The notes under the pieces are model-generated. The model was not told the DNA's origin, did not search any database, and saw nothing but the letters and a program-made list of their open reading frames with translations. This document shows, in pieces, positions 1-34,781 of a stretch of DNA of 34,781 nucleotides. Every line of letters starts with the position of its first letter. Position 1 is the first letter of the stretch. Origin of the DNA: a virus (lineage: Duplodnaviria > Heunggongvirae > Uroviricota > Caudoviricetes); the IMG/VR virus record IMGVR_UViG_2713896902_000006. One strand, written 5' to 3'. The translations under genes were made by a program, and so were the position numbers.

Positions 1-322
1 TGAGTTTGAAATGATTACTCCTGCGCCTACAGGAATCTATGCCACCTGAAACAGAGAGTAAAAAAAGGGTGCAGGAAGCCAACCATCACAATTCAATACG
101 CGGGGTTTTACCCCCGCGTGATGGCTACTTCTTCGATTCGTAAGCGAGAACTGCCTTAAATGATTAGACTTGAGATAAATGACAGGGAATAAGTGAGATA
201 TTTATGGGAAGAACTGGGTCAAAATGGGAAGAGACTAGGAGGAATATGCAATAACCTTACAGTATGTGAAAATCAGACCGGCCCGAAAAAAAACAGAACT
301 CGCGCCAGCCTGATTGCAGATA

Positions 323-712
323 TTACTCTTTTTTCTCCGTATCTGCATCGGGTTCATCAGCAAATAGCTTGCCCTGCATCCGATCCAGTTCTTCTTTTCT
401 TACCCGCTTAACCACGCTGTAGACCCACTGAAGCGAAACACCAAATTTGCGGGCCAGTTCGTGGTGGTTGCGTCCGTTAAACTCCCTGAAGATTTCCCGG
501 TCGCGCTGACTGACCTTCCATACCATGCCCATCGGGAAATAAACGTTTTGCCCGCCCCAGACCTGCATCATTCGGTTCGCGACGGCCTGACCAATCTGGT
601 CGGCAATTGCGGGCTCAATATCAATAATCTCGCGAACGGTCTCAGAGGTATGCTGTGCCAGTTCCACCAGGAGTTCCGGCCCTTTACTTCGAAACTGATT
701 CAGGTCGCTCAT
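323..712 (-). CDS. mor: Mor/C-family transcriptional activator (middle or late operon regulator)
   Basis: 129 aa, same length class as Mu Mor; C-terminal HTH-like segment (ARKFGVSLQWVYSVVKRVRK); last gene of the early operon directly after the GemA-like gene; GGGAG RBS 6 nt upstream of ATG. Confidence 0.7.
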   Translation of the reverse strand: MSDLNQFRSKGPELLVELAQHTSETVREIIDIEPAIADQIGQAVANRMMQVWGGQNVYFPMGMVWKVSQRDREIFREFNGRNHHELARKFGVSLQWVYSVVKRVRKEELDRMQGKLFADEPDADTEKKE

Positions 713-1136
713 GTTTTACTCCCGTAGCTCTGCGCTGCCACTTCTTCAGTTTCTCAATAACACTGCTTGCCTGTTCAGTACTGAGCCAGCGCAGGGCGCT
801 GATGCCCGTTTCCCGCTTGATCCACCGCGCTAATGCATTTTCTGAACGGTCACGAACAATGCCGGCAGCAGCCATTTCAAGCCATAGAGCACGGATTTTC
901 CTGGACTGCGGATGGTTATCCTGCTGTAAACCGGAGCTGGCTTTTCCGGCAAGCTTAACGCGAAAGCCTTTCCTTTTCATGGATTCCAGCACGCAGTTTA
1001 GTTGTGTGGTATCCATTCCTTTGGTTGAGGCTTTACCGGTCAGCCCCTCTAACATCTGGCGGTAGGTGTCTTCATCCATACCCAGTTCATTACGGGCAAT
1101 ATGAATGAGCTGGATAAGACGTTGTTTAGTCATCAT
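684..1136 (-). CDS. gemA: GemA-like protein (Mu gp16 family)
   Basis: Position immediately upstream of the Mor-like gene as in Mu; start placed at internal ATG 1136 (MMTKQRL...) because it has an AGGAG RBS, whereas the 1175 ATG has none; family call from recollection of Mu GemA. Confidence 0.55.
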   Translation of the reverse strand: MMTKQRLIQLIHIARNELGMDEDTYRQMLEGLTGKASTKGMDTTQLNCVLESMKRKGFRVKLAGKASSGLQQDNHPQSRKIRALWLEMAAAGIVRDRSENALARWIKRETGISALRWLSTEQASSVIEKLKKWQRRATGVKHERPESVSK

Positions 1137-1341
1137 CGTTGCTCCTTTTACCTGCGCCACCGATATAATCGACATATAAAGGAAGCGCCACAGGCCAGCA
1201 CAGGAACATCACCGACCAGCTAATCCAGTAGCCGGCACCACTGTAACGTGAATAAAACCCTGAACGGCGGTGCAGTTCAGCAGTACACCAACCGACAAAA
1301 CAATACCAGAACAGGGCACTTACAACAGATTCAGCAGTCAT
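1126..1341 (-). CDS. small hydrophobic protein (two predicted TM segments), hypothetical
   Basis: Internal ATG of ORF 1126..1497 preceded by a G-run; hydrophobic stretches FWYCFVGWC and WISWSVMFLCWPVALPLYV; compact coupling with neighbours. Confidence 0.35.
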   Translation of the reverse strand: MTAESVVSALFWYCFVGWCTAELHRRSGFYSRYSGAGYWISWSVMFLCWPVALPLYVDYIGGAGKRSNDDD

Positions 1342-1561
1342 TCTGAATATCCCCCCAACTGATATGAATATTACGGGCAGCAATGACAGGGTCGTTATTC
1401 CACCATGCACCTGACATGTATTTTTCAACCTGTTCGCGTCCGGCAATAACACCAATTGTGATCCCCGGCCTGACGTTCTTAAAAAAGGCGCGGGCAAAAA
1501 GGTATCTGGCAGATATTCGGCAGGCTTTTAATTTCCGGCTGTTACCTGATAGCGTAATCAT
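1331..1561 (-). CDS. hypothetical early protein
   Basis: 76-aa ORF whose start overlaps the stop of the upstream gene, consistent with translational coupling; no recognisable motif. Confidence 0.4.
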   Translation of the reverse strand: MITLSGNSRKLKACRISARYLFARAFFKNVRPGITIGVIAGREQVEKYMSGAWWNNDPVIAARNIHISWGDIQNDC

Positions 1562-32265: not shown

Positions 32266-32613
32266 ATGAAAACGACCTCAGTATTCTGGCAACCGGCTCT
32301 GCAGGCTCCCGGCGAAATCGTCCGGGGGCTGGATGATATCCAGCAGTCCATCCAGATCATCCTGCGGACTCCCCGCGGCAGCGACCCGCATCGCCCAGAG
32401 TTCGGCAGCAATCTGCACCTTTATATCGACTGGCCTGTCGACCGGGCCATTCCGCATGTGGTTCGCGAATCCGTCGATGCCATCAGGCGCTGGGAACCCC
32501 GCTGCCAGCTTATGTCGGTTAAACCCGCCGTCGACGGCGAACATCTTACGCTCCGGGTGAGCTGGAAAGGCTCAGACGGACAACCCCGTACTCAGGAACT
32601 GCTATGGCGCTGA
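32266..32613 (+). CDS. baseplate assembly protein W (P2 gpW-like)
   Basis: 115 aa; ILRTPRGS and WEPR blocks as in gpW-type proteins; followed by an overlapping J-like gene. Confidence 0.75.
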   Translation: MKTTSVFWQPALQAPGEIVRGLDDIQQSIQIILRTPRGSDPHRPEFGSNLHLYIDWPVDRAIPHVVRESVDAIRRWEPRCQLMSVKPAVDGEHLTLRVSWKGSDGQPRTQELLWR

Positions 32614-33707
32614 CAGAACCCGATTTTATTGAACTCGATGCCGATAAAATCACGGCAGAAATGATTGCGAAATATGAAGCGGATACCGGCAAAACGTTGT
32701 ACCCGGCACAGGCAGAACGTCTGCTGATAGATCTGTGGGCCTATCGCGAAATGCTGGTCAGGGTGGCGGTACAGGAGGCGGCGAAGCTGAATCTGGTCGC
32801 CTTTTCCCGGGAGCCGATGATTGATTACCTCGGAGAACTGGTTGGTGTATACCGCCTTCCCGCGCAGCCTGCCACCACCACACTTCAGTTCTCTGTGGAT
32901 GAGGCACTGGCCATTGATGTGCTGATCCCGGCAGGCACCCGCGTCAGCGCTTCCGACAGCGTGATTTTTGCCACCGATACAGATGTAGTGCTGAAGGCCG
33001 GTTTGCAACTGGTCAATGCCCCTGCCACCTGTACTGAGCCGGGTACCTCTGGCAACGGCTGGCAACCGGCTCAGGTCAGTCAGCTGCTTGATGAGATTGA
33101 TAACGTTGACCTGCTGGTGACCAATCTGACGGCCAGCACTGGCGGTTCAGAGCAGGAAGACAATGACCGACTCCGGGAGCGTATCAGGCTGGCCCCGGAG
33201 TCATTCACCAATGCCGGAAGCCGTGGTGCATACCGTTTTCATGCCATGGGGGCGCATCCCAGTATTGTCGACGTCGCTGTTCTTTCTCCCGTTCCCGGTA
33301 CTGTCGAGCTGTATCCACTGCTCAGCACTGGTCTGCCAGACAGCAGTATCCTCACTCTGGTAGAGAGTTTCTGTTCTGACGAAAAAGTCAGACCACTCAC
33401 TGATACCGTGCGGGCTAAAACACCTGTTCAGGTGGATTACACCATTGAAGCCAGGATTACGATCTATCGTGATCAGGATGCAATGTCGGTAAAGGACAAC
33501 GCTAACAGCGCCATACAGAACTGGGTGGCATCACGTGCCGCCACGCTGGGACGCGATATTGTCCCCAGCCAGATTATCAGTGCATTGTCCGTTTCCGGGG
33601 TGTACCAGGTTGAACTGGTGACACCGGCACTGCGGGTGGTTGCAGAAAACGAATGGGCAAACTGTACGGCAATCACTCTTAACGTGACAGGGGTGTCCGA
33701 TGGCTGA
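32604..33707 (+). CDS. baseplate assembly protein J (P2 gpJ-like)
   Basis: 367 aa; position W-J-I; start overlaps the gpW stop. Confidence 0.75.
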   Translation: MALTEPDFIELDADKITAEMIAKYEADTGKTLYPAQAERLLIDLWAYREMLVRVAVQEAAKLNLVAFSREPMIDYLGELVGVYRLPAQPATTTLQFSVDEALAIDVLIPAGTRVSASDSVIFATDTDVVLKAGLQLVNAPATCTEPGTSGNGWQPAQVSQLLDEIDNVDLLVTNLTASTGGSEQEDNDRLRERIRLAPESFTNAGSRGAYRFHAMGAHPSIVDVAVLSPVPGTVELYPLLSTGLPDSSILTLVESFCSDEKVRPLTDTVRAKTPVQVDYTIEARITIYRDQDAMSVKDNANSAIQNWVASRAATLGRDIVPSQIISALSVSGVYQVELVTPALRVVAENEWANCTAITLNVTGVSDG

Positions 33708-34278
33708 GGCGCTACGACTACCGCCACCGCTTGAGGGTGATATCAGTCTCAAAACGCTGGGAAGACTGGCCGAACGGCTGGATAACATCGACCTGAGCGT
33801 ACTGATGGTCTGTCTCGTCGATATCGTCGACAGTTCCGCGCTGCCATGGCTGGGCGAGCAGTTCTCGTTGTTCGGCGATGGCTGGGAACTGGCGGAATCG
33901 GACGATGTACGCCGCATGCTTATCAAATCCGCTATCGAGCTACACCGCTATAAAGGAACGCCGTGGTCAATCCGGGAAATTATCCGCCGTTTTGGCTTTG
34001 GCGAAGTAGAGCTGATAGAAGGTACGGGGCAGATCGGCTACGACGGTAAACACAGTTACAACGGACTTTTCGTCCATGGCGATGCACAAGCCTGGGCAGT
34101 CTATCGGGTCATCCTTCAACAGCCCATCACTAATGATCAGGCAGCGCTGTTACGTCAGACGCTCGCTGCCTTTGCTCCGGCTCGCTGCCATCTGGCAAGC
34201 CTGGAATATCAGTCTGTCGCCATTCGATACAACAGTACTACCCGTTATGACGGTAGTTACAACCACGGGAGCAGTTAA
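33700..34278 (+). CDS. tail protein I (P2 gpI-like baseplate protein)
   Basis: 192 aa; position between the J-like gene and the tail fibre gene; overlaps the J stop. Confidence 0.65.
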   Translation: MAEALRLPPPLEGDISLKTLGRLAERLDNIDLSVLMVCLVDIVDSSALPWLGEQFSLFGDGWELAESDDVRRMLIKSAIELHRYKGTPWSIREIIRRFGFGEVELIEGTGQIGYDGKHSYNGLFVHGDAQAWAVYRVILQQPITNDQAALLRQTLAAFAPARCHLASLEYQSVAIRYNSTTRYDGSYNHGSS

Positions 34279-34280
34279 TT

Positions 34281-34781
34281 ATGGCAAATCTACCTGAAAC
34301 CCCACAGTGGGAAGACGGCATCTACCAGATTGAGGTCTCTGACCCCGTTCTGGGCGGGCCTGACGGAATTTCTAACCGTCAGGGTAAACAACTGGCCAGC
34401 CGCACGCTGTACCTGAAGCAACAGGTTGAAAAAGGCGGGGCTGACCTTGCGAAACACATCGCGGCAGCAGACCCGCATGCCCAGTATGCACCGAAAGCCA
34501 GTCCGGCATTCACCGGCACACCAACAGCACCTACACCTGCAAATGGCGATAACAGCAAAAAGCTGGCGACGACGGAGTTTGTGGCCAAAGCACTTGCGGC
34601 GCTTGCAGGCAGCGCCCCTGAGACACTGGATACGCTTAAAGAGCTGGCTGACGCTCTCGGTAATGATCCAAACTTTGCGACTACGGTACTGAACAAGCTG
34701 GCGGAAAAGCTGGCTAAAGACCAGAACGGCGCAGATATTCCTGATCCTGCGCTGTTTGTCAAAAACCTTGGTTTGGGAGAA
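34281..34781 (+). CDS. tail fibre protein, N-terminal part (runs off the window end)
   Basis: ATG 34281 three nt after the gpI-like stop; open frame to the window end; contains a fibre-type repeat block (DNSKKLATTEFVAKALAALAG). Confidence 0.6.
   Translation, partial: MANLPETPQWEDGIYQIEVSDPVLGGPDGISNRQGKQLASRTLYLKQQVEKGGADLAKHIAAADPHAQYAPKASPAFTGTPTAPTPANGDNSKKLATTEFVAKALAALAGSAPETLDTLKELADALGNDPNFATTVLNKLAEKLAKDQNGADIPDPALFVKNLGLGE

Follow-up and report, generated by a model that had tools for sequence, protein, structure and literature searches.

Organization of the locus

The stretch of DNA analyzed here (the window) comprises 34,781 nucleotides of the viral record IMGVR_UViG_2713896902_000006. 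Positions 161-34781 are prophage, and the remaining 160 bp are host DNA. The window cuts the prophage off inside the tail-fibre gene, 501 nt from its start, and the right end is absent. The early genes lie on the minus strand (323-8345), whereas the plus strand carries the repressor gene (8434-8841) together with every lysis, head, and tail gene. None of the 48 complete gene models is interrupted or truncated.

Host flank and left end

1-160, no strand: host flank, iap-hok-cysH region
125-160, minus: 3' end (11 codons) of a Hok/Gef toxin gene, disrupted by the prophage
155-160: presumed left copy of the 6-bp target duplication, CTTAAA
161-322, plus: prophage left end, first bases TG
172-180: predicted transposase-binding site 1, GAGATAAAT
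195-203: predicted transposase-binding site 2, GAGATATTT

The host flank is 93% identical to the region between iap and a Hok/Gef CDS in E. coli 14EC033, and the reverse strand at 125-160 reads FKAVLAYESKK followed by a stop, the C-terminus of the annotated Hok protein. Homology to copies inserted in many different host genes begins at 160/161. In E. coli genomes, the same left end adjoins phoA, dcuC, lplA, ygjJ, LysR, and ABC-transporter genes, among others, and this diversity of insertion sites indicates recent activity of the lineage. The first-pass annotation located neither prophage end and anticipated 5-bp target-site duplications. The right end is indeed missing from the window, but the left end is present at position 161, and all five complete relatives have TG...CA ends and perfect 6-bp direct repeats. 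Duplications of 6 bp are cited as a footprint of B3/Tn552-family transposases (PMC8705779). The two transposase-binding sites are predicted from conservation, as their motif occurs at offsets 12-20 and 35-43 from both ends of the E. coli relatives and BcepMu, and it resembles the predicted end sites of B3. A matching right end would be expected beyond the window, reading ...GCGCATCA and then CTTAAA.

Early operon and control region

323-712, minus: activator of late transcription, Mor/C family, with which the leftward early operon ends (Pfam Mor, E 1.3e-43)
684-3941, minus: early accessory genes, including small ORFs (Pfam GemA, Phage_Mu_Gam, DUF2786)
684-1133, minus: GemA (Pfam GemA)
1558-2241, minus: DUF2786/DUF7168 protein (Pfam DUF2786)
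3114-3644, minus: Mu-type Gam (Pfam Phage_Mu_Gam)
3672-3941, minus: small protein
3944-5110, minus: TnpB, ExeA-like AAA+ ATPase (AAA_22, E 3.6e-20)
5121-6890, minus: TnpA, DD(35)E transposase of Tn552/B3 type, 589 aa (rve domain, BcepMu/B3 homology)
6894-7805, minus: DUF3102 protein (Pfam, PHROGs)
7816-8124, minus: winged-HTH protein (Pfam, PHROGs)
8121-8345, minus: small Ner/Cro-like HTH protein (Pfam, PHROGs)
8346-8433, no strand: divergent control region
8434-8841, plus: CI-type repressor (HTH_3, E 3.4e-12; Phage_CI_repr, E 1.5e-6)

The Mor-family protein shares 54% identity with BcepMu gp01 and 31% with the Mor of Mu; its stop codon occupies 323-325, leaving 322 bp to the left edge, as the first-pass annotation noted. 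For Gam, identity to the Mu counterpart is 62%, and BLAST finds no match in BcepMu. The genes at 6894-8345 are the first of the operon. Among them, the DUF3102 protein and the early HTH protein are 41% and 35% identical to BcepMu gp10 and gp12, respectively. A promoter scan of the control region detects a near-consensus leftward promoter at 8417-8390 (TTGACA, 16 nt, TACAAT; 11 of 12 matches), whose -35 hexamer is overlapped by an ACACAC...GTGTGT palindrome that may serve as the operator. The position of the repressor gene matches those of BcepMu gp17 and B3 ORF18.

The transposase and its partner

The only Pfam domain of TnpA is rve (residues 152-282; 35.8 bits, cut-off 32.6). The candidate catalytic residues, D160, D254, and E290, form a triad that is invariant in 63 homologues sharing 31-94% identity. 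TnpA is 69% identical to BcepMu gp09 over 581 of its 589 residues. MuA gives no match to TnpA by BLAST and an hhalign probability of 0.2%, and none of the four MuA Pfam domains is found in TnpA. An AlphaFold model of TnpA (pLDDT 86.7) is closest to ShCAST TnsB (E 7e-18, about 470-530 columns), followed by IstA (E 4e-15) and Tn7 TnsB, with MuA at about 1e-9. Decayed relatives of the prophage exist, one of which (L010) carries IS100 inside tnpA.

TnpB is 59% identical to BcepMu gp08 and is assigned to PHROG 296 ("DNA transposition protein"). TnpB and MuB share the AAA_22 ATPase family, to which MuB adds MuB_C; BLAST finds no MuB match among the window proteins. TnpB is predicted to be the target-DNA partner of TnpA, analogous to MuB, TnsC, and IstB.

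Late promoters, lysis, packaging, and head genes

12068-12082, plus: predicted late promoter 1, TAACGCTGTTTAAAA, preceding the holin gene
12135-19386, plus: first late unit, encoding holin, SLT endolysin, spanin-like lipoprotein, two small proteins, TerS, TerL, portal, F-like and G-like proteins
19430-19543, plus: terminator hairpin (19430-19475), then predicted late promoter 2 (19529-19543)
19601-25133, plus: protease/scaffold, major capsid, cement, Mu Gp36 and Gp37 connectors, small protein, P2 FI-type sheath, FII-type tube

The late promoters are predicted from conservation: the motif TAA[AC]GCNG[AT]TTAAAA occurs only twice in the window and only twice in BcepMu, at equivalent places. The region at 19430-19543 contains a 15-nt block identical to BcepMu, and the predicted fold of its terminator is a hairpin plus a U-run. 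Mu likewise has a terminator and late promoter at this G-I junction. In the first late unit, Pfam identifies TerS as Phage_Mu_Gp27, the portal as Portal_Mu (E 5.5e-90), and the F-like protein as Phage_Mu_F; TerL is 62% identical to that of BcepMu and 49% to that of Mu. The head genes match Mu as well as BcepMu.

Tail genes and fibre

25136-28490, plus: DUF7739 protein, tail assembly chaperone, tape measure
25509-25850, plus: tail assembly chaperone (Phage_TAC_7, E 1.5e-22)
26025-28490, plus: tape measure
28490-31237, plus: P2-type GpU-domain protein, tail protein X, GpD hub, GpV spike (Pfam)
32266-34278, plus: P2-type baseplate wedge proteins W, J, and I (GPW_gp25, Baseplate_J, Tail_P2_I)
34281-34781, plus: tail fibre, constant N-terminal part, 167 codons, cut off by the window (P2 H and BcepMu gp52 homology)
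34756-34781: gix-like crossover site in the window's last bases, TTGTCAAAAACCTTGGTTTGGGAGAA

The chaperone gene probably has a frameshifted extension to 25932 in the +1/-2 frame, judging from its reading frames: after a run of five G residues at 25839-25843, the +1 frame reads GEIDALDTDDLEMWLEQAEEQIKSEFGDNQ, and the -1 frame is nonsense. In two relatives (L008 and L009) the tape-measure gene is split, and IS elements lie in the tail region of ATCC 43896 and B7A-like strains.

The sheath is 77% identical to that of BcepMu. The GpU, X, GpD, and GpV proteins are 40-59% identical to BcepMu gp45-48, with D and V also matching P2, and W, J, and I are 55-65% identical to BcepMu and 25-37% to P2. The distal genes are ordered GpU, tail X, GPD, base V, a nuclease gene, GPW/gp25, Baseplate_J, Tail_P2_I, and fibre. 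By tblastn, the tail proteins match P2 FI, FII, D, V, W, J, I, and H. Their Pfam families include Phage_P2_GpU, Phage_tail_X, Phage_GPD, Phage_base_V, GPW_gp25, Tail_P2_I, and Phage_tube, whereas the Mu equivalents mostly belong to others (DNA_circ_N, GpP-like, Mu_Gp45, GP46, Mu_Gp48, Tail_tube). Baseplate_J is common to both phages, and Mu P has a weak Phage_GPD match. The sheath, tube, and baseplate proteins have no BLAST match in Mu; the sole tail match is between 25 aa of the fibre N-terminus and Mu S. This N-terminus shares 57% identity with P2 H and 48% with BcepMu gp52. The gix-like site resembles Mu gix at about 20 of 26 positions, counted by eye. In a relative (L002), the invertible fibre segment lies between the arms of a 21-bp inverted repeat, and the site corresponds to the left one. 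The Gin invertases of the relatives are 74-75% identical to Mu Gin.

Cargo genes

8912-11127, plus: cargo pair
8912-9919, plus: YejK/NA37 nucleoid-associated protein (NA37, E 1e-80)
9922-11127, plus: 401-aa protein, N-domain acidic, transmembrane segments in the C-terminal part
11117-11887, minus: Dam-family N6-adenine DNA methyltransferase (MethyltransfD12, E 2.5e-27)
31319-32194, plus: inserted moron, whose 291-aa product carries a PD-(D/E)XK nuclease domain of DpnII-MboI/AgaN type at its C-terminal end (REase_DpnII-MboI, E 3.1e-47)

The cargo pair is a candidate anti-phage system. The 401-aa protein has an N-domain of pI 5.0 and transmembrane segments at 262-311 and 356-378. The pair gives weak matches to the NCBIfam antiphage models DS1_1 and DS1_2 (63.7 and 75.9 bits, below the cut-offs of 330 and 315), and its architecture is that of type II PANGU (bioRxiv 10.64898/2026.04.06.716658). 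The methyltransferase scores above the cut-off for TIGR00571 dam (115.6 bits). The moron protein also matches PADLOC Aga_Helical-REase (E 1.7e-30) and EcbAgaN in the PDB (E 1.7e-5). The insert has a GC content of 41%, is absent from Escherichia phage PhiKM and from strain MS20655, and occurs in 18 of 5,426 complete E. coli genomes. The repressor-lysis slot and the V-W gap are probably two places in which exchangeable cargo is carried.

Proposed mode of working

In the lysogen, the CI-type repressor would shut the strong leftward early promoter. Upon induction, of which this copy may be capable, the early operon would produce the Ner-like protein, the DUF3102 protein, TnpA, TnpB, Gam, and the accessory proteins, with the Mor-family activator as its final product. 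TnpA is expected to bind the pair of 9-bp sites lying 23 bp apart at both TG...CA ends, nick the ends, and join them with a 6-bp stagger to target DNA chosen with the help of TnpB, leading to replicative transposition and 6-bp duplications. Mor would then activate the late promoters upstream of the holin and protease/scaffold genes, allowing expression of the lysis genes, the Mu-type headful packaging and head module, and the P2-type contractile tail. A Gin-type invertase just past the window would switch the fibre tip.

Identity of the prophage

Positions 161-34781 almost certainly belong to a temperate, transposable BcepMu/B3-type myovirus that transposed into a hok-family gene, and they cover its left ~93%. 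In a BLAST comparison of the window with BcepMu, 34 of the 49 gene models match collinearly, a shared gene order that argues against a chance pattern, and the matches extend over nearly the whole length of their counterparts. The prophage is BcepMu-like in gene content and is not a close relative of the type phage, because the two nucleotide sequences have little in common, aligning over 32.7% of bases with 67.6% identity. The nearest deposited phage is PhiKM (PQ738613; 95.7% nucleotide identity), which is filed under Bcepmuvirus. With window 1-25000 as query, at least 80% of this sequence is present in 595 of the 5,426 complete E. coli genomes.

Membership of the BcepMu group, proposed in the first-pass annotation, is borne out by this collinearity and by the similarity of the transposase, ATPase partner, and sheath. 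The annotation was also right that an rve/DDE-type transposase with an AAA+ partner is present rather than a MuA-like protein and that early and late clusters diverge around the repressor and cargo genes. The transposase is closer to BcepMu and B3 than to MuA, and the tail proteins are of P2 type rather than Mu's. The distal tail genes run from U to the fibre as described, but this order is that of BcepMu, and functionally of Mu, not that of P2. Similarly, the hybrid architecture holds in that a Mu-like head is combined with P2-type tail proteins; this is nonetheless the standard BcepMu layout, and B3 is also divergent. In the published account of BcepMu-like viruses, the transposase belongs to the Tn552-IS1604 family, the genes form two clusters that diverge, and the tail proteins are related to those of P2 (PMC2771037). 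This account is nearly the same as the earlier description. The kind of prophage was already known. It is widespread, common in E. coli, and no new hybrid.

The right end, the second duplication copy, the invertase, and the fibre tip fall outside the window. The element could be a decayed or domesticated remnant that no longer transposes or forms particles, as the missing right end, the disabling lesions in the transposase gene of L010 and the tape measures of L008 and L009 and the IS-bearing tail regions of other strains might suggest. This is unlikely, given the open, full-length genes with nearly whole-length BcepMu matches, the intact left end sites, the deposition of the closely similar PhiKM genome as a phage, and the varied insertion sites of the lineage. 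It is very improbable that a P2-like tail region was recently joined, in nature or during assembly, to a Mu-like prophage or inserted transposon. Such a junction would fit tail proteins that match P2 without Mu, head proteins that match Mu, and the different genome sets closest to the left 25 kb (98.8%, MS20655) and the right 10.8 kb (99.4%, WS3294A). However, the same head-tail junction and order are found in Burkholderia BcepMu and hundreds of E. coli genomes, complete relatives are single 36.8-39.7 kb units between 6-bp duplications, and P2 head, replication, integrase, and cos functions and nucleotide matches are absent. The difference in nearest genomes is ordinary mosaicism within one prophage family.

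Descent as a true Mu relative (Muvirus) whose transposase diverged beyond recognition can practically be dismissed. Mor, GemA, Gam, TerL, portal, F, and G do match Mu at 27-62% identity, and the Gin of the relatives and the TG...CA ends are Mu-like. Yet MuA and MuB have no BLAST matches here, the MuA domains and profile similarity are missing, the early region runs the opposite way, the duplication measures 6 bp instead of 5, the sheath, tube, and baseplate proteins lack Mu matches, and only 2.4% of bases align.

Comparison with known systems

BcepMu (AY539836) has the same pair of divergent clusters, with Mor leftmost; it also shares the core order of ATPase partner, transposase, DUF3102, HTH gene, repressor, holin, SLT endolysin, and Rz, and the succession of Mu-type terminase, portal, F, and G by P2-type sheath, tube, T, U, X, D, V, W, J, I, and H. 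The TG...CA ends, the sites at offsets 12 and 35, and the two late-promoter positions are also the same. BcepMu differs in having SSB and HU genes in its early region, whereas the window has the Mu-type Gam, and gp18-20 and an acyltransferase as cargo in place of the nucleoid-associated protein pair, Dam, and nuclease moron. It is reported to lack an invertible fibre segment (PMC2771037), whereas the E. coli relatives have a Gin-type one.

Pseudomonas phage B3 (AF232233) shares the divergent layout and the transposition module, with identities of 57% for TnpA, 55% for TnpB (to a "putative transposase B subunit"), 52% for the DUF3102 protein (ORF13), 56% for the HTH protein (ORF14), and 65% for Dam. 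Its lysis genes and small terminase also match, and it is reported to make 6-bp duplications (PMC8705779). In contrast, B3 has no match to any tail protein from the sheath onward, and its TerL, portal, and capsid are only 25-28% identical.

Mu has in common with the prophage a DDE transposase with an AAA_22 ATPase, TG...CA ends, Mor/C-controlled late genes, Gam, GemA, packaging and head proteins, the functional order of the tail genes, and, considering the relatives, Gin and the gix-like site. MuA and MuB, however, have no detectable sequence relation to TnpA and TnpB, and the orientation of the early region and the length of the duplication differ. Mu has three transposase sites per end, compared with the two predicted here. 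Identity to P2 ranges over 25-57% for the sheath, tube, D, V, W, J, I, and fibre N-terminus, and GpU and X are alike at the Pfam level. In P2, however, V-W-J-I-H-G precedes FI-FII-E-T-U-D, and X lies among head and lysis genes; no P2 head, replication, integrase, cos, or ogr function and no P2 nucleotide similarity was found in the window.

The solved transpososomes of TnsB (Tn7 and type V-K CAST) and IstA (IS21) are the best structural matches to the TnpA model. All of these transposases work with an AAA+ partner (TnsC or IstB) and recognize repeated sites within the ends of their elements. They differ in that TnpA shares only 13-16% sequence identity with them, the window element has no CRISPR or TnsA component, and it would be a whole phage genome that replicates by transposition.

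Relationship to BcepMu, B3, Mu, and P2

The prophage that fills bases 161-34781 of the window belongs with the transposable phages of the BcepMu/B3 group, whose transposase is related to that of Tn552. When all window proteins were compared with BcepMu (AY539836), Mu, P2, and B3 (AF232233) by tblastn, 34 of the 49 matched BcepMu, with their order kept. Identities are 77% for the sheath, 69% over 581 aa for the transposase (against BcepMu gp09), 68% for the tube, 62% for TerL, and 59% for both the portal and the ATPase (against gp08). B3 has the transposition module in common with the window, namely TnpA (57%), TnpB (55%), and the DUF3102 protein (52%), and its layout is likewise divergent; tblastn gave no match between the window tail proteins and B3. 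The published description of BcepMu-like viruses fits the window layout point by point (PMC2771037). Together with the collinear matches, it bears out the membership of the BcepMu group that the first-pass annotation had proposed. As in such viruses, the terminase and head proteins are related to Mu and the tail proteins to P2 (tblastn, Pfam), and a Tn552/B3-related rve transposase lies beside an ExeA-like ATPase, with neither MuA nor MuB.

Mu matches are limited to Mor, GemA, Gam (62%), TerL (49%), the portal, F, G, and a 25-aa stretch of the fibre (tblastn). A Muvirus would carry MuA-type domains, and the window encodes none of them (DDE_2, HTH_Tnp_Mu_1, HTH_Tnp_Mu_2, Mu-transpos_C) and no MuB; it would also leave a 5-bp duplication, where all five complete relatives show 6 bp. 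The tail genes do not correspond to Mu baseplate genes: most Mu tail proteins fall in Pfam families other than the P2-type families of the window, with Baseplate_J common to both and a weak Phage_GPD match in Mu P. The P2 matches are confined to FI, FII, D, V, W, J, I, and H, at 25-57% identity (tblastn). Judged by P2 gene order, capsid, terminase, integrase, cos ends, and the rolling-circle replication gene A, the element falls outside the Peduoviridae, as the tail proteins alone match, the order differs, and there is no nucleotide match to P2. At the genus level, ICTV practice uses approximately 70% genome-wide nucleotide identity; 32.7% of bases align with BcepMu itself, at 67.6% identity, which is below that level.

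The distal tail had been read as following the P2 order. Its proteins are indeed P2-type, but the gene order is that of BcepMu and, functionally, that of Mu. The window runs GpU, X, GpD, GpV, an inserted gene, GpW, GpJ, GpI, and fibre, whereas P2 places V-W-J-I-H-G ahead of FI-FII-E-T-U-D, and its X adjoins the lysis genes.

Gene layout and distribution

The ORF list, together with RefSeq annotation of relatives, gave 49 gene models, and all 48 complete ones are open. Rfam and tRNA scans of the window found no RNA genes. The principal genes are as follows.

323-712, minus strand, Mor gene
3114-3644, minus strand, Gam gene
3944-5110, minus strand, AAA+ ATPase gene (TnpB)
5121-6890, minus strand, transposase gene (TnpA)
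8434-8841, plus strand, repressor gene
8912-9919, plus strand, YejK-like (NA37) nucleoid protein gene
9922-11127, plus strand, gene of a 401-aa protein
11117-11887, minus strand, Dam gene
25509-25850, plus strand, tail chaperone gene
31319-32194, plus strand, nuclease gene in the gpV-gpW gap
34281 to the window edge, plus strand, fibre gene

The region 323-8345 is encoded on the minus strand throughout and holds Mor, GemA, small ORFs, Gam, the AAA+ ATPase, the transposase, the DUF3102 protein, and two HTH proteins. From 8434 on, the plus strand carries the repressor, cargo, lysis cassette, terminase, head, and tail, with the Dam gene as the sole exception. The ORF map and gene models thus confirm early and late clusters diverging from a central region, the bottom strand carrying the early genes and the top strand the repressor gene and those for lysis, head, and tail, in agreement with the BcepMu annotation. 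The Mor gene does end 322 bp from the window edge, as first reported. Gam, 62% identical to Mu Gam and without a counterpart in either BcepMu or B3, is a Mu-derived module within a BcepMu-type early operon.

The nearest deposited phage is PhiKM (PQ738613), which GenBank places in Bcepmuvirus. In a megablast of the first 25 kb of the window against deposited phages, PhiKM is 95.7% identical, and Phi06_2974 B and Klebsiella phage KP12 are approximately 86% identical. At least 80% of the same 25 kb is carried by 595 of 5,426 complete E. coli genomes, the best match being strain MS20655 (98.8%). Over the right 10.8 kb, identity is 99.4% to another set of genomes, for example that of strain WS3294A. 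The left and right portions are thus closest to different genome sets, as in ordinary mosaicism among members of a common prophage family. Decay is visible among the relatives: IS100 lies within the transposase gene of one (L010, 5926-9654), and the tape-measure genes of two others are broken into pseudogenes (L008, 14431-17643; L009, 25884-29096).

The transposase and its predicted ATPase partner

The first-pass annotation described the transposase as an rve-type enzyme with an AAA+ partner rather than a MuA-like protein, and that description is correct. In Pfam, rve is the only domain of TnpA and AAA_22 that of its neighbour; MuA combines DDE_2, two Mu HTH domains, and Mu-transpos_C, all lacking from the window enzyme. 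No relationship was found between the transposase profile and MuA by hhalign (0.2% probability), nor between the ATPase and MuB by BLASTP.

An alignment of 63 homologues, reaching down to 31% identity, has ten invariant columns, which include D160, D254, and E290. The last two are 35 residues apart, and in alignment they correspond to the catalytic D and E residues in a retroviral integrase. With its RNase H-like core and conserved D/D/E, TnpA is a DD(35)E enzyme of the integrase superfamily. A structural model from the 63-sequence alignment has a mean pLDDT of 86.7; it replaced an earlier model from 24 close homologues, whose catalytic core was unusable (mean pLDDT 58.5). In a fold search, the model is nearest to TnsB of a type V-K CRISPR transposon (E 7e-18), followed by IstA of IS21 and Tn7 TnsB; integrases and MuA come next, at approximately 1e-9. 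Searching the PDB by sequence, whether with TnpA, its profile, or TnpB, returned only marginal matches, and the fold search alone was informative. Enzymes of the TnsB, IstA, integrase, and MuA types work with an AAA+ partner or in multi-subunit transpososomes and use repeated end sites. TnpA belongs to the Tn552/B3/TnsB/IstA group, the Tn552 link itself being drawn from the literature. TnpB shares the AAA_22 family with MuB, and its B3 counterpart is annotated as a transposase B subunit. The protein labelled as ExeA family is better read as a transposition ATPase than as a secretion factor.

Prophage ends and target duplication

Neither prophage end had been located at first. The right end is absent from the window, but the left end is present, at base 161, where the element begins with TG. 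Homology with relatives starts invariably at 160/161, and their copies lie in varied host genes (phoA, dcuC, lplA, ygjJ, and others). The element measures 36.8-39.7 kb in five complete relatives, from TGATTAGACTTGAG... at one end to ...GCGCATCA at the other, with TG...CA ends, and a perfect 6-bp direct repeat flanks it in all five, at five different loci. The duplication is thus 6 bp, against 5 bp in Mu, and the 5-bp target-site duplication that had been anticipated did not hold. Duplications of 6 bp are described as the footprint of B3/Tn552-family transposases (PMC8705779). TG...CA termini, many insertion sites, and a short duplication are also features of BcepMu-like viruses; here they come from the relatives, and the window copy shows the left end alone. 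BcepMu virion DNA is reported to carry variable host DNA at both ends, a mark of replicative transposition with headful packaging (PMC2771037).

The host flank, bases 1-160, holds the last 11 codons (125-160, minus strand) and the 3' region of a hok/gef-family toxin gene situated between iap and cysH. Because the flank is the 3' end of such a gene, the insertion split a hok-family gene. The left copy of the duplication would be CTTAAA at 155-160, and the right end of this copy would be expected to read ...TTTATCGCGCGGCGCATCA, followed by CTTAAA and the rest of hok. The flank is just approximately 93% identical to its best E. coli matches.

Each terminus of the E. coli prophages, and likewise of BcepMu, carries the motif G(A/C)GATA(A/T)(A/T)T at offsets 12-20 and 35-43, and a similar motif is present in B3. 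The window copies, at 172-180 and 195-203, are likely transposase sites, a prediction made from sequence. A direct repeat, ATGGGAAGA, lies directly inside them at 204-212 and 224-232, with 20-bp spacing.

At the other edge, the fibre gene is cut after 501 nt, and the last bases of the window are TTGTCAAAAACCTTGGTTTGGGAGAA (34756-34781). In a related E. coli prophage (L002), TTGTCAAAAACCTTGGTTTGGGAGAA forms the left arm of an inverted repeat of 21 bp (37077-37097 and 38887-38907) around an invertible fibre segment, which adjoins a recombinase with 74-75% identity to Mu Gin. By eye, the edge site matches Mu gix at approximately 20 of 26 positions. A segment present in mixed orientations is a frequent break point in assembly and may be the cause of the missing right end. 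In BcepMu, an invertible fibre system is reported to be absent (PMC2771037).

Predicted promoters and terminator, and a probable chaperone frameshift

The 88-bp gap between the Ner-like gene and the repressor contains a predicted, near-consensus leftward promoter with an overlapping palindrome. A 15-nt motif, TAA[AC]GCNG[AT]TTAAAA, has two copies alone in the window, at 12068-12082 before the holin and at 19529-19543 before the protease/scaffold. BcepMu likewise has two alone, in equivalent places (11486 and 18813 in its genome, L005). Both copies are probable late promoters dependent on the one Mor-family activator. A terminator hairpin precedes the second motif, with a 15-nt block in common with BcepMu; in Mu, a terminator and a late promoter lie at the same (G-I) junction. 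A Mu-style strong gyrase site was also considered for the conserved block of the central G-I gap and rejected: the block folds as a terminator hairpin with a U-run and gives no alignment with the Mu site. A weaker shared element, CTTTAATATC, lies ahead of the chaperone gene and again in the V-W gap.

The tail chaperone is probably extended by a frameshift into the +1/-2 frame after a G5 run, in the stretch 25839-25932. A P2-style -1 frameshift was rejected because the -1 frame reads nonsense. The putative extension is like that of Mu, whose -2 frameshift is verified according to the Mu annotation, and differs from the -1 frameshift of P2.

Cargo genes

The slot between the repressor and the lysis genes holds a YejK-like nucleoid protein (NA37, E 1e-80) and, after a 2-nt gap, the 401-aa protein, which has an acidic N-domain (pI 5.0) and C-terminal membrane segments. 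Type II PANGU antiphage systems are built in the same way: a YejK-like NAP gene shares its operon with the gene of an acidic-N, C-terminal-TM protein (bioRxiv 10.64898/2026.04.06.716658). The pair at 8912-11127 has the architecture of type II PANGU, or DefensePredictor DS-1, but its sequences lie outside the NCBIfam antiphage families DS1_1 and DS1_2, whose cut-offs are 330 and 315 bits; the two proteins score a weak 63.7 and 75.9. The NAP gene product has no PADLOC match. The pair occurs in 19 of 5,426 E. coli genomes, and in the listed cases the Dam gene adjoins it, as in the window. This Dam methylase is 65% identical to B3 Dam. In the early region (161-8345), GATC is approximately three-fold under-represented (9 observed, 31 expected from base composition); in the cargo and late regions it is not. 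The phage bears its own Dam gene.

The second slot is the V-W insert (31238-32265), which has 41% GC and encodes a 291-aa protein in which an unknown N-domain precedes a C-terminal AgaN/DpnII-MboI-type nuclease domain. The gene is present in 18 of 5,426 genomes, IS-disrupted in some of them, and is absent from PhiKM and MS20655. None of the listed genomes has both cargoes together. Dam and the DpnII-MboI-type nuclease were considered as a possible GATC restriction-modification pair. That reading loses weight, since the nuclease domain is similar to AgaN, the effector nuclease of Argonaute systems, and the genes are 19 kb apart and occur independently among genomes. A tentative and rather doubtful reading of the cargo is that the lineage uses two fixed slots, the repressor-lysis junction and the gpV-gpW gap, for exchangeable anti-phage genes, the first holding a divergent PANGU/DS-1-type pair and the second an undescribed single-gene defence, the 291-aa protein.

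Comparison with known transposable phages

The finding is correct but ordinary, and all of it is known biology. BcepMu/B3-type prophages laid out in just this way have been on record since 2004, and little here is new. A deposited phage is almost identical to the element, as are prophages in roughly one in ten complete E. coli genomes. Its practical value is for annotation: once the exact left end, the rule of a 6-bp duplication, the conserved end sites, and the late-promoter motif are known, such prophages can be delimited precisely, and the cargo slots may serve as places to search for defence genes. Unlike BcepMu, the element has a Mu-type Gam, other cargo, and a Gin-type fibre switch, the last seen in its relatives. 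It resembles Mu in the outline of its working, but its transposition enzymes and tail are not Mu-related.
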